Origin: Gemmatimonadota bacterium
GTDB lineage: Bacteria; Gemmatimonadota; Gemmatimonadetes; Longimicrobiales; RSA9
Length of the DNA: 64,000 bases
Assembly (NCBI GenBank): GCA_039715185.1
Contig: JBDLIA010000008.1
Location: 4,207 to 68,206, forward strand
Direction: 5' to 3'
Of this stretch, positions 25,370-64,000 are shown one piece after another. How positions within the stretch are numbered: position 1 is the first letter of the stretch; every line of letters begins with the position of its first letter. Made by a program: the position numbers and the translations under genes. Below the pieces are notes generated by a model. That model was not told the DNA's origin, made no database searches, and saw only the letters and a list, made by a program, of their open reading frames with translations.

Positions 25370-27538
25370 ATGTTCTCCCAGAAGGGCGTCTCGCGCTCGA
25401 CCTGGCTGCGCGGCGTGCTCGCCGGCGGAGCGATTCTCTGGGCGCTGGGCGCCTCGGCCGAGCCGGCCGCGGCGCAGGATCGCACGACCGAGGCGTGCCG
25501 CGCATACGTGAGCGCGGGAGGCGCCGTACCGGTGGCCCCCACGTCCGATCCCGACGAGGTCGAACGGCTGGTGTCGGCGGCGCTCCAGGCGAGCCTGCTG
25601 GAGGACCACGAGACCGCCGGACAGTTGCTCCAGCGCGCGCGGCGGTTGGCCCCCTCGGACCCCGACGTGGCCTACTACATGGGCCGCGCGCAGGTGGCCG
25701 CGGGTGACTCCGCCAACGCCATCGCCTCCTATTGCGCCTACCTGAATCTGGCGCCCAACGCCCCCGATCGCGCCGTGGTGCAGGCCACCGTCGCCGGCCT
25801 GCTGGATGGCGTACCCGCGCCGTCCCCCGCCGTCGAGGCGAGCGCGCCCGAGGGGTCTGGCCTGGCGTTCGGCCGCCTGGAGATCCTGGCCGTCGTGGGC
25901 GTCCTGTTGGCGATCCTGCTGGCCCTCCTGGCTGCCGGCACGGACGGGTCGCGCGTCCTGACGCGGGCGCGAGCCTACCTGGCCGAGCGCCGCCAGCGCC
26001 GCGTGGGAAGCATCGCCGCGTCCGCGCGCCGCGGAGTCTCGGAGGCCTGGCTAGAGCACGGCCTCAGGGATCGTGGCTCTCCGGGCCGGAGGCTGGAGCG
26101 GCTATCAGAAGCCCTCGAGCGACTCGGCGACCGCGAGATAGCCACGCTCGAGAGGCTCGAGGCGCGGCTCGCCGCGGGCGCGCGCGCGCTGACCCGTGTC
26201 ATGGTCCGGCGCGACACCGCCTCCGGTGAGCGATCGCGCGAAGGGGAGCTCATCCCGCGGGGTGGCGACAGCGTCGCCATCGTGGTCATGCTCGCCATCG
26301 TGGCGGTGGCCGTCGTGGCGCTCAACACCATCCTGCTCCACGACGCGGTCGCCCAGGCGTTGCCTGCGCCCTCTTCCTTGACCGGGGTGGACGTCGCCCT
26401 GCTGGTGGCATTGGGCCTCGGCATCGCCGCCCTGGGCGCTGGCCTGCTGTGGTACGCGCTCGAGAGCGTGGAGGCGGCCAGCCTGCACACCCTTCTGTTC
26501 AAGCTCACGCCGTTCCTGCTGGTGTTCGGATTGACCACCGTGCAGGTTCTGGCCTACACGGTGGTAAGCGGTCGGCTGGACATTCCGGGCCGCCTGGACG
26601 TCGAACCGGGCACCATGCTCTATCCGGTGCTGAGCTACCTGGTGGTTCTCATCGGCGGGCTGATCCCGCTGTCTCTGGCCACCACCGGGTACTCGCTCTT
26701 CAACGGCCTCCAACGCGCGCGCGTGGCGACCAGTGAGCGGCGGCTGCAACGGGCCCTCGCCGACCGTCCGGAGGAGACTCTGGCGCGCATCGCCGAGCAC
26801 ACCGAACGGTTCCACCACGAGCTGATTCACGGCTTCAGGGACGCCGCGGGCATCGGCGGGGAAGACGAGGAGTCGGTGGCTCTCATCGTCAGGGAGGAGA
26901 TCACGGCGCTTCAGCGCACCGCCCCGGCGGCGGTCGCCGTGCGTCCCACCACCGAGGTGCTCGGGCCGTTCCTCCTGGACCTCGGCGTGGTGGCCGCGTG
27001 GGCGCTCGTGGTCGGTCACGCGTTCCAGCTGTTTTCGCGCCCCGGCGGCGGGCTCGATCCGGTAGCTTGGGGAATCGCAGCGCTGGCCGCCGCGCTGGCG
27101 GTCACCGCCGCCGGCATCGTCGCCAAGCGCGTGCTGTTCGGGCGCGCCGGGCTCGGCACCACGCCTTCCCTGCCGCGCGGCCGGCCGGGCAAGCTCGTGC
27201 TCGGATTCGCGGCGGCGTGCGGGCTCCTCGGCGGGTTGCTCCTTCTCGCGCTCGCGTACGGCCTGCAGCCGCTTTCCAGCGGCCCGACGCTCAACCTGCT
27301 GTACGGCGGCCTGCTCACTCTCCTGCTGGCGCTCGCCGCCGCCGCGCTGGACGACGCCATCCTCGCTCTCGCCACTCTGCTCCGGATGACCGGGCACGGG
27401 AGCGTCTGGCTCTTGGCCGAGATCGCCGCCGGGGCGTCCTTCGTGGCCGAGGCCGCGCTCGCCACGCTCGCGCTGGTCGCCAGCGGCGGAGCCGGCAGCC
27501 GGCGCGAAGGCGCCGGAGAGCCGGACGCGGCGGGCTAG
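25370..27538 (+). CDS. Polytopic membrane protein with N-terminal signal peptide and TPR-like periplasmic segment, hypothetical
   Basis: Start at ATG 25370 (MFSQKGVSRSTWLRGVLAGGAILWALGASA), 2 nt after the DnaJ-RCC1 stop. About 10 hydrophobic helices. The track ORF start (25130) lies inside the upstream gene. Confidence 0.6.
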   Translation: MFSQKGVSRSTWLRGVLAGGAILWALGASAEPAAAQDRTTEACRAYVSAGGAVPVAPTSDPDEVERLVSAALQASLLEDHETAGQLLQRARRLAPSDPDVAYYMGRAQVAAGDSANAIASYCAYLNLAPNAPDRAVVQATVAGLLDGVPAPSPAVEASAPEGSGLAFGRLEILAVVGVLLAILLALLAAGTDGSRVLTRARAYLAERRQRRVGSIAASARRGVSEAWLEHGLRDRGSPGRRLERLSEALERLGDREIATLERLEARLAAGARALTRVMVRRDTASGERSREGELIPRGGDSVAIVVMLAIVAVAVVALNTILLHDAVAQALPAPSSLTGVDVALLVALGLGIAALGAGLLWYALESVEAASLHTLLFKLTPFLLVFGLTTVQVLAYTVVSGRLDIPGRLDVEPGTMLYPVLSYLVVLIGGLIPLSLATTGYSLFNGLQRARVATSERRLQRALADRPEETLARIAEHTERFHHELIHGFRDAAGIGGEDEESVALIVREEITALQRTAPAAVAVRPTTEVLGPFLLDLGVVAAWALVVGHAFQLFSRPGGGLDPVAWGIAALAAALAVTAAGIVAKRVLFGRAGLGTTPSLPRGRPGKLVLGFAAACGLLGGLLLLALAYGLQPLSSGPTLNLLYGGLLTLLLALAAAALDDAILALATLLRMTGHGSVWLLAEIAAGASFVAEAALATLALVASGGAGSRREGAGEPDAAG

Positions 27539-44906: not shown

Positions 44907-45662
44907 ATGCCGATCGACGTGAAGACCCACGAAGGGATCGCCCACGTCGTCCTGAGCGATCCCCCGCTCAACATCCTGACGCGGGCTCTCCTCTCGGACC
45001 TGCGCCGCGCCCTGACCGAGCTGTCCGCGGATGGCACGCTCCGGGTCCTGCTGCTGCGGGCCGAGGGAAAGCACTTCTCCTCGGGGGCATCCGTCGAGGA
45101 GCATCTCCCCGGGACCGTCGAGCGGATGATCCCTGAGTTCATGCAGACGATCGGGGCCGTGCGAGACTTCCCCGTGCCGACGATTTGCGCGGTGCAGGGG
45201 CGGTGCCTGGGCGGCGCGCTGGAGTTGGCGCTCGCCGCCGACTTGGTCATCGCCGCGGACAACGCCTCGTTCGGCGTGCCGGAGATCAGCCTGGGCGTGA
45301 TCCCTCCCGCGGCGTGCGTTCAGCTCCCGCGCATGGTCCCGCCCGGCGTCGCGGCCGAGCTGGTCTTCACGGGGAGACCGATCGACGCGCGTTCCGCCGT
45401 GGCGGTAGGGCTGGTGACGCACGTGGTGGAGGTGGATTCGCTGCACGACGCGGCGATGCGCCTGGCCCATGCCATTTCTGCGCACAGCGCCGCAGCGCTC
45501 CGCAGCGCGAAGGAAGCGCTGAGGGCCGGCGCGGAGGCGGTCGACAGAACGATGACCGAAGCGTCCCGGATCTACCTCGAGGACCTGATGCGCACGACTG
45601 ACGCCGCCGAAGGCCTGCTGTCGTTCATGGAGAAACGCCAACCTCACTGGACCCATTCATGA
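44907..45662 (+). CDS. dch: Enoyl-CoA hydratase (crotonase); likely cyclohexa-1,5-diene-1-carbonyl-CoA hydratase
   Basis: 251 aa crotonase fold ([34 protein letters not shown]). The specific function is inferred from context. Confidence 0.65.
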
Positions 45663-46828
45663 CCTCCGAACCGATCGTCCCGGAGCTTTCCACCGAGTCG
45701 CTGGAGGAGCTGCTGTGGAGCGCGCGTGAGCTGCTCGAAGACGACTCCTTCCCCACCGTGAGCCGTTGGCGAGAGGCTGGAGGCAAGGTCGTTGGACACT
45801 TCCAGGTCTACTTCCCGGAAGAGATCGCCCACGCCGCCGGCGCCCTTCCCTTCCGCATGCGCGGGGCGCCGGTCGAGCCACTCCAATCCGACTCCCGCTT
45901 CGGGTCGTACCTCTGCTCGATCCTCAAGACCTCTCTGGAGATCGCCCTCACGGGACGCGTGGAGCTCGACCTGTTCGTCACCCATCCGATCTGCGACGCC
46001 GCCCGCAACATGGCCGGCATCTTCGGTCGCAACTTCGACTACCCGTGCCAGATCCTGTACCTGCCGCAGAACACGGCCTCGGCCCACACGGTCACGTACC
46101 TGCGCGGCGAGTACGCGCGCCTGCAGCGCGTGGTGGAGGAGGCCACCGGCACCGCGGTGTCTGATGAAGCGCTGCGTTCCTCGATCGGCGTCTACAACCG
46201 GAATCGTGCGCTGCTGAGGGATCTGTACGCCGTCAAGCGAGACACCCCCTGGCAGATCTCCGCGGACGAAGCGTACGCGCTCATGGCGCTGGGCGGCGTG
46301 ATGAGGCGCGAGGACCACAACGCCGTACTCGAGACGGCGCTGCCGCTGATCCGGGCGCGGGATGCGCCTCGACCCGACCGCATTCGCGTCGTCTACGAGG
46401 GCGGCTTCTGCGAGCAGCCGCCGCTCGACCTCATCCGCGCGGTGGCGCGCTCGTGCTACGTGGTGGACGATGATCTGCTGATCGGCATGCGCTGGATCCT
46501 CAGCGATATCCCGACCACCGGCGACCTGCTGGCGAACATGGCCGAGGCGTACATCGAGGACTCCTCGTACTCGCCGGTGCAGCACGACGACCGGAAGAAG
46601 AAGGAGGACATGCTCCTGGAGCGCATCCGCGCCGCCGGGGCAGAAGCGGCCATCGTGACGGCGGCCAAGATGTGCGAGCCCGGACTCGAGGAGCAGGTCG
46701 CCTATACGCGGAGCCTGGACGAGGCCCGGGTCCCGTACTTCGTGAGCGAATTCGAGGAGAACATGACGAGCTTCGACCACCTGGAGATCCAGCTGGAGAC
46801 GTTCGTCGAGAACCTGATGTTCGACTGA
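45659..46828 (+). CDS. bcrC: Benzoyl-CoA reductase subunit C-like (BcrC/BadD/BzdN; 2-hydroxyacyl-CoA dehydratase family)
   Basis: 389 aa. N-terminal pattern [31 protein letters not shown] is typical of the BcrC/HgdB family. Overlaps dch by 4 nt. Confidence 0.75.
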
Positions 46829-46838
46829 GGAGCGGGAG

Positions 46839-48137
46839 ATGTCACAAGCGACGACCAGCCTGGTGGGCCGAGGCAACGCGGACGGTGCCCGTCTCTTCAA
46901 GGAATGGTTCACGGAACTCGGCCAGGCGGCCGAGGAAGGACGGGGCGGAGCGTACGTGTTCGTGATGGGGAGTCTGGTCGAACTGCTTCGCTGTTTCGAT
47001 CTGCCCGTGGTCTTTCCCGAGATCAACTCCCTGCAGACCGCGGTCCGCCACGAAGCGCACGAGTACCTGAACGAAGCGGAGGACTACGGCTACTCGCCCG
47101 ATATCTGCGGTTACGTGAAAGCCGACGTCGCCACGCAACTCCGAGGGGGGCGCCTGCCGATGGGCCGCATCCCGCCGCCCGGAATCGCGGTCTACACCAA
47201 CGCGTGCAACACGTACATCAAGTGGGCCGAGATCTGGGAGCGGATGTACGACTGCCCCATCGTCACGATCGACGTCCCCGGCAGCCGGGCGGCGGGCCTA
47301 CGCCCCGGGCGAGGAGACCCGGACTTCGAGAACGATCTGGGTTACGTCCTCGGCCAACTCCGGGAACTCATCCCGGTCCTCGAGAAGGTGAGCGGAAAGG
47401 CGTTCGATATCGACCGGCTCCGCGAGACCCTCGGGCACGCCAACACCATGGCTCGGGGGTGGCAACGGGTGCTGGAGCTGAACAAGTCGACGCCTTCCCT
47501 GTTCAACGCGCTCACGGACGGAACGATCTATCTCGGAGTATCGAACTGCCTTCGTGGGACCGCCGACGGGGCCGCGTATTTCGACGACCTCGTCGAGGAG
47601 ATGGAGTTCAAGAGTGACAACGGCATCGGCACGCTCACCGAGGAGCTCTACCGACTCCTGTTCGTCGGCGTGCCGTGCTATCCGATCTTCCGCCGCTTCG
47701 GCGAGCTGTTCAGCGAATGGGGCGGCACGTTCGTAAATTCGACCTACCTGTGGTTCGCCTCCGGCGGCGCGAACGAGGGGTATCAGTACGACGTCGATCG
47801 GCCCGTGGAGAGCCTGGCCGAGGGGCTTCTTCTGGGGACCCGGGCCGCCATGGACAGCATGTTCTTCCAGACCGAGCCGCTGCTCGAGATGTTCGACAGC
47901 TATCAGGCCGACGGCGTGGTCTACCACCCCATCAAGAGCTGCCGGACGGTCTCGACGGGCCTGGCGGACAACCGCCGCGAGGTCATGTCACGCGGCGACG
48001 TCCCTTCCCTCTTCATCGAGTCCGACATGATGGATCGTCGCGTGGTCTCCGAGGCTCAGCTGAAGAACCGGATCGACGCGTTCTTCGAGGGTCTCGCGTC
48101 CCGCCGCATCAAGGCCGCCACCACCACCGCCCAGTAG
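46839..48137 (+). CDS. bcrB: Benzoyl-CoA reductase subunit B-like (BcrB/BadE/BzdO)
   Basis: 432 aa member of the same dehydratase-component family (YVFVMGSLVELLRCFDLPVVFPEINSLQ...DICGYVK). Confidence 0.75.
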   Translation: MSQATTSLVGRGNADGARLFKEWFTELGQAAEEGRGGAYVFVMGSLVELLRCFDLPVVFPEINSLQTAVRHEAHEYLNEAEDYGYSPDICGYVKADVATQLRGGRLPMGRIPPPGIAVYTNACNTYIKWAEIWERMYDCPIVTIDVPGSRAAGLRPGRGDPDFENDLGYVLGQLRELIPVLEKVSGKAFDIDRLRETLGHANTMARGWQRVLELNKSTPSLFNALTDGTIYLGVSNCLRGTADGAAYFDDLVEEMEFKSDNGIGTLTEELYRLLFVGVPCYPIFRRFGELFSEWGGTFVNSTYLWFASGGANEGYQYDVDRPVESLAEGLLLGTRAAMDSMFFQTEPLLEMFDSYQADGVVYHPIKSCRTVSTGLADNRREVMSRGDVPSLFIESDMMDRRVVSEAQLKNRIDAFFEGLASRRIKAATTTAQ

Positions 48138-52895: not shown

Positions 52896-53768
52896 TCAGC
52901 GTGTCCCCGTCTCTCCCTGCAGAACGCCGCGCTGGTGGGGCTCGAGCAGGGCGCTGGCGCGCAGCACCAGGAGGGGCGCCGCTCCGCCGTCGCTCACCAC
53001 GCCCGACACGAGCGCCGCGCTCCGGCCGCTGAAGAGCGCTGGCAGGGGCGCCCAGCGACTCCGCTGGATGGCCTCCACCGCGACGACCTCGTCAACAACC
53101 CAGCCCACCCGCTGGTCCTCCTCCCCCAGTATCAGGACGCGGCGGTCCGGCCCGCGCTCGGGTTCCAGGCCCAGGTGCGGCCCCAGGTCCAGAACCGGCA
53201 TGGCGAACCCCCGCAGCGGCAGCATGCCCAGCACGTAGGACGGCAGTCCGGGGACCGGCTGCGGATCATCGTACGGCCAGATCCTGTCGACGTCGTCGGA
53301 CTCGAACGCGAACTGGTGCGCTCCTATCCGGAAGCGGACCAGCGACAGCGCGTCGGCGGCGCCATCGACGCCGGGCACCGGCGCCTGGCCGCCCTCGCGC
53401 ACCGGCGCGGCGAACAGGCGTTCGAGGTCCAGGCGCGTCACCACGCGGCCGTCCTCGGTCCACGCCTCGACGTCTTCCTCATCCTCTCGCTCCGCGACGC
53501 CGCGCACGGTCTCGACCAGCAACGCGTACACGGTCGACCCCCGGTCCAGTATCAGCGCCACCCCCGGCCCAGGGATCGCCTTCAGCTCCAGCGCCCGCCC
53601 GAGGTCGATGACCGGGAGCCACGATTCTCGATGCTCGATCACGCCGCGGACGCGCTCCGGCATGCCGGGCATGGCGTCCACCACGGGCTCGTCCACGGCC
53701 TCGGTCACGGCGTCCGACGGAATGGCCCAGGTCTCCCCTCCGGCCACGACGAGCAGGTAGCGCGTCAC
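52896..53768 (-). CDS. cheW: Tandem CheW-domain coupling protein
   Basis: 290 aa with two CheW-like halves (LLVVAGGETWAIPSDAV...GVIEHRESWLPVIDL and LVRFRIGAHQFAFESDDV...GMLPLRGFAMPVLDL). Confidence 0.75.
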   Translation of the reverse strand: MTRYLLVVAGGETWAIPSDAVTEAVDEPVVDAMPGMPERVRGVIEHRESWLPVIDLGRALELKAIPGPGVALILDRGSTVYALLVETVRGVAEREDEEDVEAWTEDGRVVTRLDLERLFAAPVREGGQAPVPGVDGAADALSLVRFRIGAHQFAFESDDVDRIWPYDDPQPVPGLPSYVLGMLPLRGFAMPVLDLGPHLGLEPERGPDRRVLILGEEDQRVGWVVDEVVAVEAIQRSRWAPLPALFSGRSAALVSGVVSDGGAAPLLVLRASALLEPHQRGVLQGETGTR

Positions 53769-54841
53769 CGGCGCCCTCGGCGGCTCCGAGCGCGCGGCCG
53801 CGGCCGCTCCGCCACGGCCTCGGCAAGAGCGTCGGCCATCCCGTGCAGTGGAGCGACGCGAGCCGCGTACGGCGCCGCCGCCGCCGGCATGCCGAAGATC
53901 ACGGACGTATCGCGATCCTGCGCCAGCGTGCCGCCGCCCACCTCGCGGATTGCTCGCAGCCCCTCCGCGCCGTCCCGCCCCATCCCCGTCAGCACGGCGC
54001 CCACGGCGCGAGGCCCGGCGTGACGCGCCAGCGACGCCAGCAGGATGTCCCCCGAGGGCCGCACGCCGTGCACGGGCGGGCTGTCCACGAGCCGCTGGAT
54101 CCAGTGTTCCCCGTCGCGGCCGATCTCCAGGTGGGTCCCACCCGGTGCCAGGTAGGCGCAGCCGGCCGCCACCGGCTCGCCGTGCGCCGCCTCGCGCACG
54201 GGAAGCCGCGCGACGCCGTCCAGGCGCTCCGCCAGCGACGCCGTGAAGCGCGGCGGCATGTGCTGCGCGATGAGCACCGCGGCGGGCAGGGTGGGTGACA
54301 GACCGGGCACCAGCTCCATGAGCGCGCGCGGCCCCCCGGTGGAGGCCACGATGCCCACCACCGCCGGCGCCGGCGCCGATTCGGTGCGCGACGCCCGGCG
54401 GCGTCGGCGAGGCGGCACCGGCGGGCGAAACCGCAGGTTCGTGATCCGGGCCATGGCGGCCGCGCGAAGCGCCCTCAGGAGGCGTTCCGCGAACGGCGCC
54501 TCGTCCTCCAGGGTAGCCGGCTTCGCGACGATCTCGGCGGCGCCGTAGTCGAGCGCCCTCAGCACCTCCTCCCCGCGCGCATCCAGCGCGGACACGACGA
54601 CGACCGGCCGCGGGGCCTCGCTCATGATGTACCCCAGCGCGTCGAGGCCGTCGAGGTCGGGCATGCGCAGGTCGAGCGCTACGATCGCGGGGTCGGTCTC
54701 GTGCACCTGCCGGATCGCCTCGTACCCGGTCGCCGCCTCTCCGACCACGGAGAATTCCTGTGACCGCTCGACGACGTCGCGCACGAAGGAGCGCATCATC
54801 ACGCTGTCGTCCACGACCAGAACTCCGGGCGGGCCGGTCAC
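53765..54841 (-). CDS. cheB: Protein-glutamate methylesterase CheB (REC + methylesterase)
   Basis: VLVVDDSVMMR...ALDLRMPDLDG receiver. VVGIVASTGGPRAL and GMGRDGAEGL...VIFGMP catalytic-domain motifs. Confidence 0.9.
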   Translation of the reverse strand: MTGPPGVLVVDDSVMMRSFVRDVVERSQEFSVVGEAATGYEAIRQVHETDPAIVALDLRMPDLDGLDALGYIMSEAPRPVVVVSALDARGEEVLRALDYGAAEIVAKPATLEDEAPFAERLLRALRAAAMARITNLRFRPPVPPRRRRRASRTESAPAPAVVGIVASTGGPRALMELVPGLSPTLPAAVLIAQHMPPRFTASLAERLDGVARLPVREAAHGEPVAAGCAYLAPGGTHLEIGRDGEHWIQRLVDSPPVHGVRPSGDILLASLARHAGPRAVGAVLTGMGRDGAEGLRAIREVGGGTLAQDRDTSVIFGMPAAAAPYAARVAPLHGMADALAEAVAERPRPRARSRRGRR

Positions 54842-55737
54842 GGGCGCCGCCTGTACACGCGCAGCGGGACGGAAACCGTGTCGTAGAGGGTCGCCGAAGC
54901 CCCTACCAGGCTCTCGGCGCGGCCCAGCACGAGGAACCCACCGGGCACGAGCGCCTGGTGCAGCCTCTCCAGAATGGCCGCCTGGGACTCGGAATCGAAG
55001 TACATGATGACGTTGCGGCAGCAGATCAGGTGCTGACCGCGGGGATACCGGCCCGCGAGCAGATCCAGGTGCCAGAAAGCCGCCTTTCGCCTGATGCGAT
55101 CCACCGGTCTGTGGGGCGGGCCGCCCGCCTCGAACCAGCGAGCTCGGTCTTCGTCCGTGGTCTCCGCGAGCCCCAGGTCCGCGTACGCCGCGGCGCGCGC
55201 CGCGTCCAGCGCGTCGGGGTCGATGTCCGTCGCTACGAGGCGAAAGCGGCGGGAGCCGGAGCCGGGTCGGAGCCGGTCGAACTCGTCCAGGAGCATCGCC
55301 AGCGTGTACGCCTCCTCGCCGGCCGCGCAGCCCGCGCTCCAGAGGTTCAGAAACGCGTCGGGGCGCGCGACGAGCTCCGGCAGCACCCGCTCGGCCATGT
55401 GGCGCCAGACGTCGCGGTTCCGGAAGAACCTGCTGACGTTGATCGTGACCGCGGCGAGCAGGCGCTCGTACTCCGCGGGGTCCGCGTGGAGGACGCCAGC
55501 GTACTCCTGGTAGCTGGCGGCCCCGGTGGCCCGCATGCGCACCGCCACTCTGCGCCGAAAACAGGCCTCCTTGTAGCGCGACAGCGAGAGCCCGGTGGCC
55601 AGGTCTATCTGGCGCGTGAGCGCATCCAGTTCCGCCGCCTGCTCCGGCGAGAGCGTGCCGGACGCCAGCGGAAGCAGAGCGGCCGACCCATCGATCGCGC
55701 TCTCGATCGAAGCGGGCGCGTCACTCCGCATTCCCAA
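54838..55737 (-). CDS. cheR: Chemotaxis protein methyltransferase CheR
   Basis: TINVSRFFRN, LWSAGCAAGEEAYTLAM and ICCRNVIMYF motifs. Confidence 0.9.
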   Translation of the reverse strand: MGMRSDAPASIESAIDGSAALLPLASGTLSPEQAAELDALTRQIDLATGLSLSRYKEACFRRRVAVRMRATGAASYQEYAGVLHADPAEYERLLAAVTINVSRFFRNRDVWRHMAERVLPELVARPDAFLNLWSAGCAAGEEAYTLAMLLDEFDRLRPGSGSRRFRLVATDIDPDALDAARAAAYADLGLAETTDEDRARWFEAGGPPHRPVDRIRRKAAFWHLDLLAGRYPRGQHLICCRNVIMYFDSESQAAILERLHQALVPGGFLVLGRAESLVGASATLYDTVSVPLRVYRRRP

Positions 55738-57337
55738 CGACCGCCAGATTCTTGCGGACCACCTCGTTGCGCGGATTCAGGTCCAACGCCCTACGCCAGC
55801 AACGGATCGCGTCTTCCCGCTCGCCGCGCTTGAGGTGCAGATTGCCCATGCGGGCGAACACGTCGTCTCCCAGGTCGGGGGCGGACGTGGTGGCCTTGCG
55901 GTACTGGTCCATCGCGTCGTCGTGGAGGCCCCGGCGATAGGCGATGTCGCCCAGGTTCTTGTAGGTCTGGGGCAACTGCCGATCCGCGTCCAGCGCGCGC
56001 AGGTACAGGCGCTCGGCCTCGTCCAGGTCGGCCTGGCGTTCCGCGATGGCTCCCGCCAGCAGTAGCAGCGGGGCGGACTCCGGAAAGGCACGCAGGCCCG
56101 CTTCCATTGTCGCGCGCGCCTCGTCCAGGCGTCCGGTCACCGCCGCGAGCAGGCCGGCCAGGTGAAAGAACGGCGCCGAGGGGGGTCGGTCGCCCAACCT
56201 GCGCCGGTACTCGACGAGGTGTTCGCCGGCGCCGCCCCAGTCGCCCCGCTCGGCGAGGATCGCCGCCCTGTGGAGCGATACGATCTCCGAATCGGGCGCC
56301 AATGACTCCGCCTCGTCCAGAACCAGCAGCGCGTCGGCGGCGCGCTCGAGCATGCGCAGCCCGTAGGCGAGCGATACGAACGCGCCGTGCTGGGGGCCCT
56401 GTTCTTCCAGGACGGCCTTGAGCCGCTGGACCGCGTCGCGTGGCCGGCCTCGCTGCAGTGCGATCCTGGCCAGGTAGGAACGCGCGGCGGAGTCCTTGGG
56501 CCTGATCTCGAGCACGCGCCGGAACTCCGCCTCGGCCTCCTCGAGCATGCCCGTCGAGTAGAACGCCGTGCCCAGGTTCAGCCGCTCGCTGAAGTCCGCT
56601 TCCCGCTCGGCGCTGGCGCCCTGCGCGCGCTGGCCCACCCGCTGCGCGAACCCCGCCTGAATCAGTCCGTAGAGGGCCTTGCCGGCGTCGAACTCCGCCA
56701 GGCCGCTGCGATCGGCGATCTCCGCGACGGTCGTCGCTCCATCCACGAGCGGCAGGATCCTCTCCTGCTCCGGCGTCAGCGCCAATCCCGCGTCGTGCAG
56801 CCGGTCGTGGTCCAGATCGAAGACGTCCTCCAGAGAAGGGATCTTCTTGGCGATGACGCTCCACTCGTCCACCCTGCGGGCGCCCTCCAGGAGCAGGCTT
56901 TCCGGGTTGATCGACACCAGGAACTCGGTCTCGCCCGGACGTTGATCCACCTCGAAAAAGAAACCCCCCTGAGACCACGTGAACAGGAAGTAAACCGCCT
57001 CTTCGATCTGCGCCCGGACGCGCTCCCGCAGCGCCTCCTCGTCGAGCCACCCGCGCGCGAGCAGGATCTGCCCCAGGCGGCGCTCGGGGGATCGGCCCTG
57101 CTCCTGCAACGCTTCGGCGAGCTGTTCGGCCGACACCACGCCCTCGGCCACCAGGAGGTCGCCCAGCCGGTCGCGCCGGTTCACCACGCTGGCGAACGTG
57201 ATGCGGCCCCCGTCGAAGTAGATGCGGCCGAAGCGCTCGCGGTCGGTGATGGACAGGCAGCCCGACTTCATCCCCATCGCCAGCAGCTGGCACACGTCCG
57301 CCAGGCTCGCCTCTCGGAGGCTCCCCTTGATTGCCAT
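55721..57337 (-). CDS. DUF4388 (PATAN-like) + T2SSE_N-like + TPR-repeat protein
   Basis: N-terminus MAIKGSLREASLADVCQLLAMGMKSGCLSI...IYFDGGRI is typical of DUF4388. LGDLLVAEGVVSAEQLAEAL motif. About 7 TPR repeats at the C-terminus. Overlaps cheR by 17 nt. Confidence 0.75.
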   Translation of the reverse strand: MAIKGSLREASLADVCQLLAMGMKSGCLSITDRERFGRIYFDGGRITFASVVNRRDRLGDLLVAEGVVSAEQLAEALQEQGRSPERRLGQILLARGWLDEEALRERVRAQIEEAVYFLFTWSQGGFFFEVDQRPGETEFLVSINPESLLLEGARRVDEWSVIAKKIPSLEDVFDLDHDRLHDAGLALTPEQERILPLVDGATTVAEIADRSGLAEFDAGKALYGLIQAGFAQRVGQRAQGASAEREADFSERLNLGTAFYSTGMLEEAEAEFRRVLEIRPKDSAARSYLARIALQRGRPRDAVQRLKAVLEEQGPQHGAFVSLAYGLRMLERAADALLVLDEAESLAPDSEIVSLHRAAILAERGDWGGAGEHLVEYRRRLGDRPPSAPFFHLAGLLAAVTGRLDEARATMEAGLRAFPESAPLLLLAGAIAERQADLDEAERLYLRALDADRQLPQTYKNLGDIAYRRGLHDDAMDQYRKATTSAPDLGDDVFARMGNLHLKRGEREDAIRCWRRALDLNPRNEVVRKNLAVVGNAE

Positions 57338-57365: not shown

Positions 57366-59165
57366 TCATCGGTCCCCCTCCGTCAGCCACTGGGCCACGT
57401 AGGGCCAGCGCCACACGACCTTGTCGCGCGCCAAGAAGAAGGCGTCCTCGTGCCCTCCGGCTCCGTCGGCCCCGCTCGACAGCGACGCCGCCGGCTCCCG
57501 CTGCGGGGGGGGCGGCTCCGCCGGTGCCGCGGCGGCGTCCCCTCCCGGGCCCTCGGCTTCTTCGGCCCCGCCGCCGGCCCTGTCCTCCAGCCCGACCACG
57601 AGGCCGGCCGCCAGACGGGAGCGCAGGCGGTCCTCCAACCCCGCTATCTGCGCCGGCGGTACGGTCCCGGTGAACGCCAACTGCGCGCCGCTCCTGAGCA
57701 GCGCGTCGAACAGGTGGAACAACTCCTCCTGGGCGCGTTCGGTATCGGCCAAGATGTCCACGTCCTCGAGCAACAGTGCGCCGGCGCCGCGGAAGCGCGC
57801 TCGCCACTCCTCGACCTGGTTGCGCTCGAGGGCCTGGATCAGCTCATCCGCGAACGCCTTGCCCGACATGAACGCCACCGGCCGGTCCGGATTGCGCTCG
57901 GCGATGCGGTTCCCCAGTGCGCCGAGCAGCGCGGACCGAACCGGCGAGGCGTGGCCGTGGACGTACAGCGGGTTGTAGCGCGAGCCGGGTTGTTCTGCCG
58001 CCGCGCGGGCGGCGCGCAGAGCCAGGCTGCCGTCATCCAGCTCTACGCGCGCGAATTGATACTCCGACGGGGGGGCGGGCAGCGGTTGACGCCGCTGCCG
58101 CACGGCCGCGAGCATGGCCTCGGCGTCGCCGATCCGGTCCGGATCGCGCAGCACACCCCAGTGCAGCTCGGGTGCGCCCGGATCCACCGAACGGATCTGG
58201 GCGTCGATTTCCCGCAACCGATCCACGTCGGCCTCGAAGGCGCGCACCGCTTCCTCCACTTCGGACGGGCCGTGCGATCCGTGCAGGAGGGCCTCCAGCC
58301 GGCTGGTGCGGTAGCCGTCCGCCTCCCACCTCATGACCGCCCCCGCGAGCTGTTGATCCTCGGCGGAGCGGGACACGACCGTGTCCATCGCGAGCGACAC
58401 GTCGGCCACGAAGTCGCCGAACTCCGACTCCCCCTTCGGCTCGGGACCCACGCCCACGAGGCGCCCCGCTTCATCCGTCCCAACGACGCGTTCCTCGAGT
58501 TCCTGAATGGCGAGCACCCGGTTCAAGGCGCCCTGGAGCTCGCGCACGTTGGAGAAGGTCGAGCGTGCCAGCAGCTCGGCGACACCGTCGGCCAGTTCCT
58601 GGGCCTGCTCCTCGGCCTTGCGGCGCACGATGGCGACCCTGGTCTCCAGGTCGGGGGCACCGATGTCCACTATGAGGCCGCCCGAAAAACGCGACAGGAG
58701 CCTGTCGTCCAACCCGTCGATCTCCTGCGGCGGCCGGTCGCTGGTCAACACGACCTGTCCCCCGCGGGCCGACATGGCGTCCCACACGCGGATCAACTCC
58801 TCCTGCGTCCTGCGTTTCCCGGCCAGGAACTGCACGTCGTCCAGGATGAGCAGACCCACGTCCTGGAAACGGGCGCGGAACGCGTCGCGGTCTCCGGCCT
58901 CGATGGCCTCCATCGCCCGATCCATGAAGCGTTCGAGCGTGTCGTAGACGACCTTGAGCGCCGGGTGGTCCAAGCCGGCCTGGTGGCCGATCGAGGTCAC
59001 GAGGTGCGTCTTGCCGAGCCCGGAGCCGCCGTAGATGAACAGCGGGTTGTACGACGACCCGGGCGACTCCGCCACGCGCTTGGCCGCGGCCACGGAAAGA
59101 CGGTTGCCGGTACCCACGACGAAATTGTCGAAGGTGAACGAGGGAACGAGGTCGACCGAGTTCAC
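57366..59165 (-). CDS. DnaA-like tandem AAA+ protein: intact DnaA domain III + degenerate second copy, no DnaA N-terminal or DNA-binding domain IV
   Basis: aa 10-225 align colinearly with DnaA domain III ([65 protein letters not shown]). aa 369-528 repeat the pattern but with GHASPVRS in place of the Walker A. Start overlaps the mglA stop (59162-59165). Confidence 0.85.
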
Positions 59166-59797
59166 GACCCCACCCCCTGCCCCGCGGTCGGCGCCGGCAC
59201 GATCGGCTGCCTATACCGGTCGGAAAGTCGCCGTAGCACGAGCTCGCTGGCCGTTCTCAGCGTTTCGAACACGCCCTCTCCGCTAATGGCCGTAGCGGCG
59301 TACTCGGGCACGCCCCGGAAGTTGAGCACGTCGCTGAGCACCTCAACCGGCAACGCGTCCGGCAGGTCGCGCTTGTTGTATTGCATCACCAGCGGCACCT
59401 CACGCACGTCCAGGCCCTCGGCGGAGAGATTCTCGTGCAGGTTACGCAGGCTGGTCACGTTCTCCGCGAGCACGCGCGGCTGCGAATCCGCGACGAACAC
59501 GACCCCGTCGGCGCCTCGCAGCACCAGCTTTCGGGTCGCGTCGTAGTAGACCTGCCCGGGCACCGTGTAGAGCTGAAGCCGAGTCCGAAACCCCGAGATG
59601 GATCCCAGATCGAGGGGGAGAAAATCGAAGAACAGGGTGCGGTCGGTCTCCGTGGCGAGGGACATCATTTCGCCCGTGCGGCCGCGCGGCAGCCGGCCGT
59701 GCACGTGCTGAAGATTGGTCGTCTTGCCGGATCGCCCTGGCCCGTAGTAGACGATCTTGCAGGTGATCTCGCGGGTGGAGTAGTTGACCAGCGACAT
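59162..59797 (-). CDS. mglA: MglA, Ras-like polarity GTPase
   Basis: Near-colinear with Myxococcus MglA: [70 protein letters not shown]. Confidence 0.92.
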
Positions 59798-59800: not shown

Positions 59801-60286
59801 CTATCCGCGCTCTCCCATCACCCGTCGAACCCCGGCCTCCAACTCGTGCTCGAAGCGGCTCGCGTCCCGCACGGAGCTGGCCCCGCCGAGCTCCCGGATC
59901 TCCCGGAGCTGGTCGCCGAGCCGGTCGCTGAACAGCCGCACTATCCCCAGCGATGTCGCCCTGTCGAAGATGGCTACGAGGATCAAGTCGGAGCCTCCAA
60001 CTTCGTGCGGCGCCAGCAGCATCTGCTGGGTTCGTCCCTGGTTGTGCAGGTGAGTCCACCTGCGTACGCCCGTCATGTCCGCGAGGGCACCCGCTGCGGC
60101 GTGGGCGGCCGCCGCCAGCGAAGCCACGTTAGTAACCTCGTAGCCGCGGCTGAATCCCTGCTGGGCGAGAAGCTGGCCGCTGGCGTTCACGAGCACGGCC
60201 GTGCGCACCCTGCTCTCGCGCACGAACTCGCGGAGGGGCGCGCGCAGCCGCTCGACGAGGACAGCCAGCTCCTCCTGCGTTCTCAC
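59801..60286 (-). CDS. mglB: MglB, Roadblock/LC7-domain GTPase-activating protein
   Basis: 161 aa Roadblock fold (RTAVLVNASGQLLAQQG...LILVAIFD). Sits immediately upstream of mglA in the canonical mglBA order. Confidence 0.8.
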   Translation of the reverse strand: MRTQEELAVLVERLRAPLREFVRESRVRTAVLVNASGQLLAQQGFSRGYEVTNVASLAAAAHAAAGALADMTGVRRWTHLHNQGRTQQMLLAPHEVGGSDLILVAIFDRATSLGIVRLFSDRLGDQLREIRELGGASSVRDASRFEHELEAGVRRVMGERG

Positions 60287-60630
60287 GCGAGCGCCTCTAC
60301 CGCGCGGCTCGCCTCCACGCTCAACGATGCCAGCTGCGCGTCGGGAGCGGCCAGCGCGACGATGAGCATCTCCCCGGCCCCCGCGACGTGCAGGTAACCG
60401 CCGCTGGCGGCCAACTGCAGCGTGCGCAATCGCCCGGCGCCGGCGAGGTCGCTGCCGCGCGCGGTGCGCCGGAACAGCTCCGCCGCGAGCGCCGCAGTGG
60501 CGTTCCCGTCTACGTCGGAGTCGACCTCCATGACTACCGGCACGCCCATGTCGGCGTCGACCAGCAGGGCGGCGCGCACGCCGTCTACCCTGAGCAGCCG
60601 CTCCAGCGCGCGTTCGTATGCCTCAACCAC
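60283..60630 (-). CDS. Roadblock/LC7 domain protein (MglB paralog)
   Basis: 115 aa: VDGVRAALLVDADMGVPV...GGYLHVAGAGEMLIVALA. Overlaps mglB by 4 nt. Confidence 0.75.
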   Translation of the reverse strand: MVEAYERALERLLRVDGVRAALLVDADMGVPVVMEVDSDVDGNATAALAAELFRRTARGSDLAGAGRLRTLQLAASGGYLHVAGAGEMLIVALAAPDAQLASLSVEASRAVEALA

Positions 60631-61579
60631 GGTCTTCTCCCAGGAACGCGCGCGCGATCTCGGACGCCGCGCCCGCGGTGTGCAGCACCCAGCCGGTCGG
60701 CGCGACGCCGTCGGCGGTTATCAGGACGGCGTGCCGCTTCCCCACAGGACCCAGGTGGGCGGCCGCGTCGTCGGTCTGCATGTGAACCCCCCGCCAGGCG
60801 CCCAGACCCAGCAACTCGGCCGTCCGCTCGGCCTCGCCGGCGGCCCCCCGCAACGCCGCCCCGGCGGCGTCCGACTCCACGGCGGGAGTTCCGAGTCGAC
60901 CGCCTATGACGAAGCCGGCGCCGTCGACCAGGAGCGCGCCGCGAAACGGGCCGTTTCCGGCCAGCTCCTCGAACAGTCGCCCGGGATCACGCGCGCTTGG
61001 CGCCGCGCTCGCGGGGGAGTCTCCCTGGCCGGCGGGCGCTGGCGTGGGGGTCGGGGTCGACCGCGTGTCGGCGACCGGGCCGGGTGGGGGCGCGGGGGCC
61101 GGCGGACGCGACGCCTCGCTTGCGGCCGCCTGGTGCCCCAGGAGCGGCCCGGAGGGCGCCGCCTGCGCTGTCTTGCGCGCCACCAACTCGAGCGCCTCCC
61201 GCGTGAGCGCGTCGGCCGGGCGACGAGCGGCCGCGCGCTCCAGGTATGCGGTGGCCCCGAGCAGGTCGCCACGCTCCAGGCGCACGAAGCCCATGCCCCG
61301 GTTCGCTTCGAAGTGCGCGGGGTCCAGCCGCAGCACGACCCCCCACTCGTCGAAGGCCTTCTCGCGTTCCCCTCGCTCGAGATGGAGCCGCGCCAGGAGC
61401 GCGTGTGCGCCGGCGTGGTCGGGCCGCCGCTCCAGGCCACGCAGACACACGCGCAGCGCGCCGTCCAGGTTCCCCTGCCGCCGGTACGCGTCGGCCAGGT
61501 TCACGAACGTCGGCGCACCCGGATCGCGGGCGACCTCCAGGCTCCACCGCTGCACGTCAGCGGGCGCGGGCTTCGTCAT
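60623..61579 (-). CDS. TPR + Pro/Ala-rich linker + C-terminal Roadblock/LC7-like domain protein
   Basis: Real start MTKPAPADVQRW at 61579 (ATGA overlap with the upstream stop). TPR repeats (ADAYRRQGNLDGALRVCLRGLERRPDH...). C-terminus FRGALLVDGAGFVIGG...AVLITADG is Roadblock-like. The track ORF to 62275 is an over-extension. Confidence 0.7.
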   Translation of the reverse strand: MTKPAPADVQRWSLEVARDPGAPTFVNLADAYRRQGNLDGALRVCLRGLERRPDHAGAHALLARLHLERGEREKAFDEWGVVLRLDPAHFEANRGMGFVRLERGDLLGATAYLERAAARRPADALTREALELVARKTAQAAPSGPLLGHQAAASEASRPPAPAPPPGPVADTRSTPTPTPAPAGQGDSPASAAPSARDPGRLFEELAGNGPFRGALLVDGAGFVIGGRLGTPAVESDAAGAALRGAAGEAERTAELLGLGAWRGVHMQTDDAAAHLGPVGKRHAVLITADGVAPTGWVLHTAGAASEIARAFLGEDRG

Positions 61580-62751
61580 CGTCCTCCTTGGGATGAATCG
61601 GCAGTGGACATCGTGAGGCGTTCGCGCTCCGGGGGATAGGGGCCGTCTCGCAGCACCGAGCTCAGCGCCCGAAGCGCTTCGGTGCCGCGCAACGCGAGCG
61701 GCGCCCGCTCGTCGCCGTGCCCGAGCGCCAGAAACCACTCCCAGGCCTCTCCGGCCCGCTGGAGATCCCCGATCCGGGCCGCCGTGAAGCCCAGCTGAAA
61801 ATGCGCATCCGCCGATGTCGGCTCCAACCCGACGGCCTGCGCGAACGCCTCGGTGGCCGCGCGCATGCGCCCCTGGGCTGCGAGCGCCCTGCCCACAAGC
61901 AGGACCGGCTCGAACCGCCCGGGGTGACCCGCCGCGGCCGCCTGGGCCTCGCGCTCCGCTCCGCGCCAGTCCCCAGCCGCCAGCATCGTCTCCGCCGACG
62001 CCAGCGCTGCCTCGAGTTGCTCGGCGCCGGGCTCCGCCTGCGCGTGTTGGATCTCGACCACCCCCGTCGCGATCAGGCCGTAGACGATCTTGGCGACGGC
62101 GAACGTCCCACGCCCCACGGTCGCGGCCACGCGCCGCAAATCGGCCGCTCCATCGACGGCGGCGAGCACCGCCCATTCGTCGGGCCTGAGGTCCAGCGTC
62201 GTGTTGCCCGGAGGCGCGTCCGAAAGCACCGGCACCGCCTCCATGGTGGGAATACGTGCCTCCAACCGACTCCACTCGTCGATCCGACGCGCGCCTTCCA
62301 TCAACATCGACTCCACGCGCACCAGCACGCCCGTGGCGTCCGTCGCGGGCTTTCCTTCAACGAAACGGAACTCGCCCTCGCGCCATCCCAGCAGGTCGTA
62401 GACCGATTCCTCCATGTGGAAGCGGAGTTGGCGCTCCAGCTCCTCTTCGGACACGCTGCCCATCTCGACGAGGACCTGTCCGATGAGCTGTCCCGGGCGC
62501 TCTTTTTGTAGCGACAGGGCGCGCTGCAACTCTCCCTCCGTCAGCTTGCCCGCCCGCACCAGGTGCTCCGCCAAGCGCCGAACGGGGCGCTTGCGACGCA
62601 CCAGGTAGAGGGCCCCCTCGCTGAAATGCAGCTCCACCTCGTCGCGGTGCCGCTCGGAACGGATGTGCAGCAACCCGCTTTTTTTTGTCAGGTCCAGGAG
62701 CTGGAGCACGTCCTCCAGCCCGAGTTCGTGAAGCGGACCCTCGATCGCCAT
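61576..62751 (-). CDS. DUF4388 (PATAN-like) + TPR protein, paralog of 55721..57337
   Basis: MAIEGPLHELGLEDVLQLLDLTKKSGLLHI...LHFSEGAL matches the N-terminus of the 55721 protein. LAEHLVRAGKLTEGELQRAL motif. C-terminal TPRs. Confidence 0.75.
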   Translation of the reverse strand: MAIEGPLHELGLEDVLQLLDLTKKSGLLHIRSERHRDEVELHFSEGALYLVRRKRPVRRLAEHLVRAGKLTEGELQRALSLQKERPGQLIGQVLVEMGSVSEEELERQLRFHMEESVYDLLGWREGEFRFVEGKPATDATGVLVRVESMLMEGARRIDEWSRLEARIPTMEAVPVLSDAPPGNTTLDLRPDEWAVLAAVDGAADLRRVAATVGRGTFAVAKIVYGLIATGVVEIQHAQAEPGAEQLEAALASAETMLAAGDWRGAEREAQAAAAGHPGRFEPVLLVGRALAAQGRMRAATEAFAQAVGLEPTSADAHFQLGFTAARIGDLQRAGEAWEWFLALGHGDERAPLALRGTEALRALSSVLRDGPYPPERERLTMSTADSSQGGR

Positions 62752-64000
62752 CAGGCGGCTCCCACGTCACGCGGAGCCACGCCCAGGCCGTCCAGAGCGT
62801 CGCGAGCACGCGCGTGGCCCGGGTCGAACGCGAGGACCCGCCGAAACGCGGTTGCCGCGTCCTCGACGCGATCCTGCGCGGCCAGGTACTCGCCGAGCCG
62901 GTGCAGCCCGTCCAGGTGGTAGGGGTCGGCCGACAGGAAGTCTGCCAGGGTAGCGATCGCGCCGGACGGGTCGCCCGTGCGCCGCAGCAGCCTGGCGAGG
63001 GTGATCGCCGCATCTGCGTAGCTGGGGAGCGCCTCCAGCGCGGCCCGCAGGGTGGCCGTGGCTTCCTCCTCCCGGCCGACCGCGGCCAGCGCCCGCCCCA
63101 GGCCGGTCATGGCCGCGGGGCTGTCGGGCTCCAGCGACAGCGCCAGGCGGAAGAGTCGCTCGGCGTCCGGCCCCTGCCCCGACGCCAGGCGGGCGTGGCC
63201 GGCGTCGAGCGCCGCCCCGGCGCGGTCCTCCACGCCCTCTTCCAGCGCGCGTTCGAGCGCCTCGGCCGCCTCGGCCGGGCGCCCGTTGGCCGCGAGCGCC
63301 TGTCCGTGCACGCGCAGCGCCGACGCGGCGTCCCGCGCGCCCGCCAGCTCCGTGGTGACCAGCAGCGCCTCCGCGGCCCGGTCGAGTTGAAGGAGCGAAC
63401 GGGCGCGCCCGAGCTCGGCCGCTATCCGGGTGGCCTCCGGTAGGTCATCGCCCGCTTCGACCGCGAGCAGAGCGTCGAAGCGCTCCAGTGCTTCGCCGGC
63501 GAACCCCTGGCGCAGGAACGCCTCCGCCCGCACCAGCAGCACCTCGGCGCGCGGCGCCCCGCGCTCGGCCGCAGCGCGTGCCGCCCCGTGCACCTCGTGC
63601 AGGTCGCCGCGGGCGAGGGCTCGCCGTGCGACGGCCAGCGGGTCTGCGGGACGATCCGCTTGCCGGGCCGGATCGACGGCGGCCTCGCTCCGCGCAACTC
63701 CCTCGGGCGTTGCGGCGACGGCCGCCGTGGCCGGGTCTCCGGCGGTCCCTTCCGCGAGCGCCAGCACGAAGGGCGAGGGCGAAGTGTCCGCATCCGTCCT
63801 GTCCTGCGTCGGCGAGGCCGTCTCGGCCGCCGGCCGCTGCAGGGACTCGAACACATCGGCCAGCGCTTCAGACTCGAAGCGAAACTCCTCGACTCCCCCC
63901 TCCCCCGCCACGCGCCGTTCCGCGGCCAGCTCCGGAGCGGGGACCCCGGCCTCCTCGAAATGAAGGTCTATGAGAAGCCGAAAACGCGGCGCCGGGAAGA
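62751..64000 (-). CDS. TPR-repeat protein, 5' end probably beyond the window
   Basis: The track gives 62751..63911, but the frame stays open to 64000 (..FPAPRFRLLIDLHFEEAGVPAPELAAERR upstream of the listed GTG). Several TPR-like repeats. Its stop shares one nt with the next start (TGATG). Confidence 0.65.
   Translation of the reverse strand, partial: FPAPRFRLLIDLHFEEAGVPAPELAAERRVAGEGGVEEFRFESEALADVFESLQRPAAETASPTQDRTDADTSPSPFVLALAEGTAGDPATAAVAATPEGVARSEAAVDPARQADRPADPLAVARRALARGDLHEVHGAARAAAERGAPRAEVLLVRAEAFLRQGFAGEALERFDALLAVEAGDDLPEATRIAAELGRARSLLQLDRAAEALLVTTELAGARDAASALRVHGQALAANGRPAEAAEALERALEEGVEDRAGAALDAGHARLASGQGPDAERLFRLALSLEPDSPAAMTGLGRALAAVGREEEATATLRAALEALPSYADAAITLARLLRRTGDPSGAIATLADFLSADPYHLDGLHRLGEYLAAQDRVEDAATAFRRVLAFDPGHARARDALDGLGVAPRDVGAA

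Follow-up and report, generated by a model that had tools for sequence, protein, structure and literature searches.

The window analysed here comprises 64,000 nucleotides (nt) of contig JBDLIA010000008.1, assembled from a Gemmatimonadota bacterium (GCA_039715185.1). Its minus strand carries a tightly packed operon that encodes, in this order, a TPR protein, a PATAN-TPR protein, a TPR-roadblock protein, a second roadblock protein, MglB, MglA, a DnaA-type AAA+ ATPase, another PATAN-TPR protein, CheR, CheB, and CheW, with most of the gene junctions overlapping by 4 to 17 nt (Table 1). The ATPase, tentatively referred to as "DnaA2x", is the subject of this report. Its sequence is identical to that of a protein (P0001) named "MAG: DnaA/Hda family protein [Gemmatimonadota bacterium]" at NCBI (MAG, metagenome-assembled genome), and it belongs to a DnaA-derived type of AAA+ ATPase, novel in its architecture and apparently in its function, that occurs phylum-wide in Gemmatimonadota, has analogs elsewhere, and is undescribed in the searchable literature.

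Two DnaA domain III modules in one polypeptide

An earlier description of this DNA (the first-pass annotation) had presented DnaA2x as a DnaA paralog stripped to its AAA+ modules, without domains I, II, and IV, and had predicted that profile searches would return two matches to domain III and none to domain IV. This was indeed the outcome: Pfam matched Bac_DnaA in two stretches (E 3.9e-90), and neither Bac_DnaA_C (PF08299, domain IV) nor DnaA_N (PF11638, domain I) was matched. No domain I or II was found by Pfam or NCBIfam, the protein beginning five residues ahead of domain III, and the sequence motifs quoted in that annotation were all found in the translation of the open reading frame (ORF). 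The NCBIfam equivalog model for DnaA (TIGR00362) also matched twice, with its best stretch at profile positions 103–329 of 437, i.e., domain III; its score of 410.4 bits (cut-off 343.9) is the sum of the two domain III matches.

The N-terminal module (module 1) comprises an entire DnaA domain III, with both the IIIa core and the IIIb lid. Residues 6–234 matched domain III of Bacillus subtilis DnaA (8bv3) with an E-value of 3.8e-64, and module 1 is 46–55% identical to DnaA domain III structures such as 8bv3 and 2hcb. The AlphaFold2 (AF2) model of DnaA2x has a mean predicted local distance difference test score (pLDDT) of 88.3, and superimposes on 8bv3 with a template modeling (TM) score of 0.96 and a root-mean-square deviation of 1.4 Å. 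Judged by its sequence, module 1 keeps every residue that DnaA needs for ATP binding, ATP hydrolysis, and contact with the neighboring protomer. Module 2 ends after the box VII strand, and therefore represents a IIIa core without the IIIb lid and without sensor II. It repeats module 1 without a gap over 136 amino acids (aa), residues 391–526 aligning with residues 33–168 at 38% identity (E 1e-29, far beyond chance).

Between the two modules lies a helical linker, and behind module 2 a tail, either of which might have hidden a degenerate domain IV. A profile of domain IV, derived from 37 true DnaAs, was compared by hhalign with the family alignment over its full length and with its linker and tail taken separately. 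The resulting probabilities were 2.3% for the full length, 0.2% for the linker, and 0.8% for the tail, as opposed to 100% for a true DnaA control. A hidden domain IV was thus rejected by both Pfam and hhalign, and none was found in the C-terminal part where the first-pass annotation would have expected it had its description been wrong. The linker modeled by itself is well structured (pLDDT 85). It could not be assigned to any known fold or family, as its best match in the PDB had an E-value of 1.9 and no Pfam family was matched consistently among 55 members at E ≤ 1, and a motif search of the linker found no c-di-GMP (cyclic di-GMP) motif of the MshEN type. It is therefore regarded as a family-specific domain. 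The tail was first noted for its Gly/Ala/Pro-rich composition and C-terminal motif, and both are present, with residues 531–571 predicted to be disordered.

The start of the ATPase gene overlaps the mglA stop, as had been claimed: the junction reads GTGA, a 4-nt overlap of the mglA end (...GGG TCG TGA) with the ATPase start (GTG AAC TCG). The GTG start is backed by end-to-end alignment (99–100%) with more than 100 homologs.

Table 1. Positions in the window of the DnaA2x gene, its parts, and the neighboring operon genes.
Feature	Position	Strand	Details
Tandem DnaA-type AAA+ ATPase gene (DnaA2x)	57366–59165	-	599 aa; GTG start
Module 1 (residues 5–231)	58473–59153	-	Complete DnaA domain III, IIIa core and IIIb lid, all catalytic motifs; Pfam, NCBIfam, structure match
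Walker A of module 1 (residues 46–53)	59007–59030	-	GGSGLGKT
Helical linker domain (residues 248–358)	58092–58424	-	Family-specific; motifs RWExxGYRTxRLE, LRDPDR, RPLPAPP; high-pLDDT helices
Module 2 (residues 369–528)	57582–58061	-	DnaA IIIa core only, no lid, no sensor II
Degenerate Walker A of module 2 (residues 404–411)	57933–57956	-	GHASPVRS
Box VII-like Arg pair of module 2 (R513, R517)	57609–57635	-	EDRLRSRLA
Disordered Gly/Ala/Pro-rich tether (residues 529–571)	57453–57581	-	pLDDT <50; length differs among homologs
Conserved C-terminal motif	57369–57446	-	[FW][FY]L..[ED]K....WP...., mostly acidic end; W587 invariant
mglA	59162–59797	-	211 aa; stop overlaps ATPase start; 252 bits to M. 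xanthus MglA 6h17
mglB, roadblock/LC7 GTPase-activating protein (GAP)	59801–60286	-	161 aa; 53 bits to 6h5b_B
Second roadblock/LC7 protein	60283–60630	-	115 aa
TPR and roadblock protein	60623–61579	-	318 aa; ATG overlaps stop of upstream gene (ATGA); orthologue in locus L001
Upstream PATAN (DUF4388)-TPR protein	61576–62751	-	391 aa
TPR protein	62751–63911	-	386 aa; upstream edge of cluster
Downstream PATAN-TPR protein	55721–57337	-	538 aa; Pfam, NF053729
cheR, cheB, cheW	52896–55737	-	cheR 54838–55737, cheB 53765–54841, cheW 52896–53768; stop and start codons overlap

Conservation and origin of the modules

More than 110 full-length homologs of DnaA2x were collected, which are 570–660 aa long and share 50–80% identity with it at 99–100% coverage. 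The layout of module 1, linker, module 2, tether, and a ..WP.. motif found in DnaA2x is also seen in the loci of Gemmatimonadaceae, and an exhaustive search of representative proteins returned dozens of 50%-identity clusters with the same tandem architecture. A profile covering the family-specific part, from the linker through module 2 to the tail, was used to scan one genome per species in GTDB. Full-length family matches came only from Gemmatimonadota (Longimicrobiales, Gemmatimonadales, Gemmatimonadaceae, and Gemmatimonas), and the remaining matches were ordinary DnaAs that aligned only with the module 2 region.

Residue conservation was counted over 111 of the closer relatives, and separately over the Gemmatimonadaceae-type loci, of which 26 had extractable sequences; spurious "proteins" of one or two residues that resulted from coordinate extrapolation were excluded from the latter. 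All 111 homologs contain the module 1 residues K52 and T53 (Walker A), D109 and D110 (Walker B), R155 and R159 (corresponding to R281 and R285 of Escherichia coli DnaA), and R208 of sensor II. Similarly, the box VII arginines of module 2, R513 and R517, are found in all 111 and in every Gemmatimonadaceae-type locus that could be read, and the helix following Walker B of module 2 never varies. The conservation across more than 100 homologs indicates that the family is under strong purifying selection.

The second nucleotide site is far more variable. Its Walker A is canonical in 67 of the 111 (the Lys position being K in 70 and R in 34), and the second Asp of its Walker B is D in 75, G in 25, and N in 7. 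In the clade of DnaA2x (P0001–P0010) the second Walker A reads GH/EASPVRS, and other clades have decayed differently, while in the Gemmatimonadaceae-type loci the site is fully canonical in 26 of 26 (GxxGxGK[TS]H and DD). The "dead" second Walker A proposed by the first-pass annotation is therefore correct for the gene in the window (GHASPVRS), but was rejected as a hallmark of the family, most of which has the motif intact. As the second site is intact in all 26 Gemmatimonadaceae-type loci and in 67 of the 111 closer relatives, the ancestral protein had two nucleotide sites, of which the second has been lost repeatedly and the arginine finger of module 2 never. Module 2 thus reads as a core with indispensable interface and Arg-finger residues and, being intact in some lineages and decayed in others, a dispensable nucleotide site. 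This repeated decay next to an invariant Arg finger amounts to a natural experiment on how tandem AAA+ modules turn into pseudo-enzymes.

The claim of an internal duplication likewise needs to be qualified: the repeat itself is confirmed, but it is not a recent event. Mean core identity is 71% among N-terminal modules and 58% among C-terminal modules, but only 36% between the two, compared to 44% between N-terminal modules and true DnaA and 38% between C-terminal modules and true DnaA. In a neighbor-joining tree of 136 columns, which did not include Hda and DnaC, the N-terminal modules are monophyletic, the C-terminal modules are monophyletic, and the internal branching of the two groups is congruent. 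A recent tandem duplication can be discarded on these grounds. Because the two modules are no nearer to one another than to true DnaA, the duplication appears to be ancient, and the congruent subtrees suggest that modules 1 and 2 have evolved together ever since the family arose.

Operon partners and relatives in other lineages

The MglA encoded directly upstream of DnaA2x keeps the sequences RTLFFDF and YTVPGQ, which contain the TVPGQ motif and the intrinsic Arg. By tblastn over 40 other Gemmatimonadota loci, mglA was located directly upstream of the ATPase gene in about 38, so that the linkage described for the window is widespread; it recurs, besides, in an unrelated lineage with the gene order mglB-mglA-PATAN-[MshEN-DnaA III]-PATAN. 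Wherever the estimate was valid, the mglA stop and the ATPase start were -13 to +11 nt apart. Gene gaps were extrapolated from the alignments, and values of about 1,060–1,100 nt were discarded as artefacts of this extrapolation. Longer Gemmatimonadota contigs also contain cheW-cheY-cheA-cheC further upstream of the cluster.

A PATAN-TPR gene lies 3' of the ATPase gene in every locus that reaches far enough, with a median gap of -1 nt (n = 41). Further, one database protein of 1026 aa (P0230) has a tandem DnaA-type ATPase, including the ..WDWP.. tail motif, fused to PATAN and TPR domains; two genes may really have fused here, or the fusion may result from the loss of a stop codon or an error in sequencing. 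By gene order, the downstream PATAN-TPR gene is the tightest partner of the ATPase gene, ahead of mglA alone. The suggestion in the first-pass annotation that the ATPase was recruited to a GTPase polarity module thus agrees with the mglA linkage, but has to be widened, as mglA is not the closest partner and the whole unit sits in a che operon.

The downstream PATAN-TPR protein, which scored 54.8 bits with NF053729 of NCBIfam (cut-off 38), contains two tandem 24-residue c-di-GMP motifs of the MshEN type at residues 57–80 and 87–110, inside the alpha-helical insertion of its PATAN domain. The motif starting at residue 57 (RLGDLLVAEGVVSAEQLAEALQEQ) fits the strict consensus, and the one starting at residue 87 (RLGQILLARGWLDEEALRERVRAQ) fits the relaxed consensus. 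The chance expectation of such motifs is 0.001 per protein, and at least one was found at the same position in 26 of 40 PATAN-TPR orthologues. The PATAN domain of Synechocystis binds the N-terminal (GspE_N/MshEN) region of PilB1 and also PilC, and its alpha-clip insertion resembles the repeats of the GspE_N/MshEN region (bioRxiv 10.1101/2021.06.11.447907). Homologs of MglA and MglB near PATAN genes have been noted earlier, with no mention of a DnaA-like ATPase (PMC4316618). Our literature searches found no publication linking DnaA-like ATPases to MglA, PATAN, MshEN, or roadblock proteins. The window also encodes two PAS-GGDEF-EAL proteins of c-di-GMP turnover (6134–7963 and 18946–21231, both on the plus strand); as they lie 35–50 kb away, it is only speculative that they are the source of the signal read by the PATAN-TPR protein.

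Besides the tandem form of Gemmatimonadota, DnaA-type ATPases without domain IV were found in other lineages. In a low-GC uncultured lineage (L076 155–2475, L084 5937–10366, and L085 1370–5650), a 494-aa protein consists of MshEN, a single DnaA domain III, and a coiled C-terminus. It is encoded in the order AAA_22, roadblock, MglA, PATAN, [MshEN-DnaA III], PATAN, and the MglA of this lineage is 53% identical to that of the window. A search seeded with another such protein found the MshEN-DnaA(III) architecture to be widespread, with proteins of 404–755 aa in L086–L088. The gene is located directly before pilB-pilT, which are followed by a PilS-type kinase gene, in L086 (a Candidatus Hydrogenedens MAG, 7001–15211) and L087 (7001–13629), and only in L086 does a sigma54-type response regulator (PilR-like) follow the kinase. 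In L088 (5944–15215), its neighbors are a TPR gene on one side and pilM/N on the other, and pilO and the secretin gene pilQ are encoded further downstream. Since MshEN-DnaA(III) is seen at mglB-mglA-PATAN, pilB-pilT, and pilM/N-pilO-pilQ loci, DnaA domain III without domain IV is repeatedly associated with PATAN, MglA/MglB, and type IV pilus genes. The regular expression for the c-di-GMP motif had no match in the four MshEN-DnaA(III) proteins searched (L085, L086, L087, and L088). A third form is represented by coiled-coil giants such as P0173 (1876 aa), in which a coiled coil of about 1200 aa, rich in Glu, Ala, and Lys, separates an N-terminal MshEN-DnaA(III) from a second, C-terminal DnaA(III); P0174 (about 1900 aa) is alike. 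The N-terminus of P0173 fits both c-di-GMP motifs, as judged by eye rather than by the regular expression.

The same searches returned several other unusual DnaA-like proteins. The "DnaA [Longimicrobium sp.]" P0397 (671 aa) has domains I and IV and two copies of domain III, with near-duplicate segments (TTAEAFTNAF... and TTAERFTNEF...), and comes from a 3.1-kb contig; two dnaA variants have probably been merged into one chimeric sequence during assembly. P0224 (673 aa) is more regular, consisting of two copies of domain III and a domain IV, with no DnaA_N found, and may be a real initiator with a tandem domain III. P0454 (578 aa, "DnaA [Thermoplasmata archaeon]") and P0451 combine DnaA domain III with an Hda-type lid and C-terminal zinc ribbons in place of domain IV; the annotation of one of the two assigns it to an archaeal MAG (3.6-Mb contig), and they represent another orphan use of the DnaA ATPase. 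Four long proteins (P0192, P0207, P0231, and P0238; 1250–1420 aa) have seven to nine stretches that match the module 2 profile. These extra stretches are probably low-complexity or coiled-coil matches, since Pfam finds only one Bac_DnaA, at the C-terminus of P0192.

Possible functions of DnaA2x

The known roles of AAA+ proteins of the DnaA clade are those of initiators or loaders bound to DNA, or of their regulators. DnaA2x shares with DnaA itself (PF00308; B. subtilis 8bv3, Aquifex aeolicus 2hcb) the Walker A and B motifs, sensors I and II, and the box VII Arg finger of module 1, and the core of module 2. It differs from DnaA in having no domain I, II, or IV, in its two modules, new helical linker, disordered tail, and C-terminal peptide, and in being encoded in a che/mglAB/PATAN operon instead of at oriC/dnaN. 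Neither dnaN nor any other replication gene was found in the 64-kb window, nor was a canonical dnaA, and in the approximately 40 loci examined the neighbors of the ATPase gene are mglB, mglA, PATAN-TPR, cheR, and cheB, with no dnaN or other replication gene beside it. A replication-type ATPase thus seems to have been taken over for the control of motility or polarity. The link between replication-type ATPase logic and cell polarity proposed in the first-pass annotation survives in this sense alone: the operon is a polarity operon, but nothing ties the gene to replication and only the fold has been taken over.

On balance, and with moderate confidence, we favor the reading that DnaA2x has no part in replication and acts as an ATP-dependent switch of assembly, or as a matchmaker, in a chemosensory/MglA-MglB/PATAN pathway of polarity or pilus control. 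The individual steps by which it might work are proposed with considerably less confidence than this. In its ATP state, DnaA2x would associate with itself head to tail as DnaA protomers do, and form dimers or short open oligomers without DNA. Module 2 would serve as a built-in Hda or neighboring protomer, which offers its Arg finger and interface to the module 1 site either in cis or on the next chain, and in family members with a live second site this site may hold a structural or slowly hydrolyzed nucleotide, given that lid and sensor II are absent. The disordered tether and conserved C-terminal peptide would recruit a partner, likely the TPR domain of the neighboring PATAN-TPR proteins. The PATAN-TPR proteins could bring in a c-di-GMP input and the Che proteins stimulus-dependent switching, and MglA/MglB would carry the output to a polar machine, probably type IV pili because of the pil gene contexts of the single-module relatives. 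The machinery under the control of this pathway is thus most likely the type IV pili, or else another apparatus of polar motility.

Several known systems resemble parts of this scheme. As in Hda/HdaA, module 2 is a DnaA-like core in which the Arg finger is the key conserved feature rather than catalysis; in contrast to Hda/HdaA, which is a single AAA+ domain of about 230 aa, module 2 is lidless and fused in cis within a protein of 599 aa that falls under the Hda cut-offs and is encoded in a non-replication context. DnaA2x also falls under the cut-offs for the DnaC/IstB helper ATPases, scoring 58 versus 200 with IS21_help_AAA and 30 versus 228 with the DnaI model. The close MglA orthologue, the roadblock GAP, and the che genes recall the MglA/MglB and Frz proteins of Myxococcus xanthus and their logic of signal-induced polarity switching. 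Unlike in M. xanthus, the components are encoded here in a single operon, no RomR or RomX is seen in the cluster, and extra roadblock, TPR, PATAN, and DnaA-type ATPase genes are present. To our knowledge, no DnaA-like component has been reported in Myxococcus polarity. The PATAN proteins encoded on both sides of the ATPase gene are similar to the cyanobacterial PATAN regulators of PilB (PixG, PixE, and PatA), and MshEN/GspE_N, the domain by which PilB binds PATAN, is also found on the DnaA-type ATPases of the relatives. In contrast to the PilB systems, the ATPase is of the DnaA type; MshEN is missing from its Gemmatimonadota form, and in the PATAN partners of this form TPR domains take the place of REC domains. 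Two modules per polypeptide, one of them often degenerate, are likewise found in type II (tandem) AAA+ proteins such as p97/Cdc48, but DnaA2x belongs to the initiator clade, matches them with a TM score of only about 0.3 at 14% identity, has a lidless module 2, and shows no evident ring or pore features.

Some observations weigh against the favored assembly switch. In two loci of the Gemmatimonadales type (L002, mglB 9498–10004 and ATPase 10001–11917; and L008), mglB is followed by the ATPase gene without an adjacent mglA, and the second P-loop is decayed in both of these ATPases. No pilus genes were found in the window. The predicted TM score (pTM) of the AF2 model is 0.52, so the relative orientation of modules 1 and 2 is uncertain. 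The C-terminus of DnaA2x (...TEGDR) departs from the EELE or EEFR with which the tail of the homologs usually ends, and any partner proposed for the C-terminal motif is guesswork. Lastly, R477 of module 2, the equivalent of the ssDNA (single-stranded DNA)-contacting R245 of E. coli DnaA, is present in 109 of the 111 homologs, and such near-invariance leaves room for nucleic-acid binding.

The same operon and the same ATPase site could also suit a factor that acts in the opposite direction, i.e., one that disassembles or remodels MglA-effector, PATAN-PilB, or chemosensory complexes at polarity reversals. The hydrolysis site of module 1 appears fully competent from its sequence, the gene lies in a switching operon of che and MglA/MglB genes, and DnaC and IstB, which belong to the initiator clade, are ATP-dependent loaders or release factors. 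We nevertheless consider such a role unlikely, as the fold of DnaA2x is that of the open DnaA filament instead of a ring unfoldase, and the poor structural match to p97-type tandem AAA+ proteins points the same way.

A regulator coupled to replication is a still less probable alternative. In this case an Hda-like Arg finger would act on canonical DnaA by hetero-oligomerization, and polarity signals would tune initiation. The Arg-finger residues are indeed invariant, module 2 has weak matches to HdaA (E about 1e-6), and the AAA+ interface may fit canonical DnaA because the modules are 38–54% identical to true DnaA domain III. However, the scores stay well under the cut-offs of the Hda models (TIGR03420 and NF006571; 117 versus 194.8 and 28 versus 297–300 bits), no clamp-binding motif of the QL[SD]LF type is visible at the N-terminus by eye (no formal motif scan was run), the ATPase gene is never beside dnaN or replication genes in the loci examined, and the single-module relatives adjoin pilB/pilT and pilMNOQ.

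If module 2 did bind nucleic acid through R477, DnaA2x might have kept the ssDNA-binding mode of domain III and tether the polarity module to the nucleoid. The ssDNA-bound DnaA domain III of 3r8f is among the fold matches, which lends the idea some support. We judge such an anchor very improbable: only 65 of the 111 homologs have an R at the corresponding position of module 1, the equivalent of V211 is not conserved but variable, and domain IV is absent.

That DnaA2x is the real replication initiator of the genome, or else a decaying pseudogene copy, can be practically dismissed. The TIGR00362 cut-off is passed and JGI names homologs "chromosomal replication initiator protein", but that score adds up two domain III matches, and neither domain I nor domain IV is present. 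The gene is part of a che/mglAB operon and is found at 2.19 and 3.50 Mb on two chromosomes of about 5.4 Mb, a Longimicrobium MAG has an annotated DnaA that comprises domains I, III, and IV (P0397, though its sequence looks chimeric), and the purifying selection seen across the homologs argues against a pseudogene.

A conserved family without any DNA-targeting domain, located in the polarity, chemosensory, and pilus loci of several lineages, suggests that the ATP switch of the initiators has been put to a new use. We know of no exchange factors or landmarks of MglA/MglB outside Myxococcus, and DnaA2x would add a missing component to such systems; it is also a candidate partner for PATAN proteins other than PilB. 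More broadly, and as a conjecture that we are inclined to doubt more than to believe, the domain-IV-less DnaA-type ATPases, whether tandem (Gemmatimonadota) or MshEN-fused and giant (elsewhere), may be unrecognized ATP switches of multiple phyla that work with PATAN/MshEN and MglA/MglB in positioning or gating type IV pilus or polarity machinery, the Gemmatimonadota form filling the role of polar landmark or exchange factor that RomR/RomX has in Myxococcus. If so, the bacterial initiator fold would have a second, DNA-independent job in the cell. On the practical side, homologs are often annotated as "chromosomal replication initiator protein DnaA" (in JGI names, the TIGR00362 cut-off being passed), and this misannotation can cause errors when origins are predicted in Gemmatimonadota or their genomes are rotated.

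Apart from the operon, four large ORFs in the window have GC content of the coding type at third codon positions and no Pfam match at E ≤ 1e-5, at 13496–16885 (minus strand), 25130–27538 (plus), 9998–11662 (minus), and 21647–22861 (plus), with lengths of 1129, 802, 554, and 404 aa respectively. The largest of these has an unusually low GC content at first codon positions (0.58, versus about 0.7–0.8 in its neighbors). Unrelated to DnaA2x, a pair of genes similar to the D component of 2-hydroxyglutaryl-CoA dehydratase (HGD-D) adjoins a short-chain dehydrogenase gene at 45659–48137 on the plus strand.

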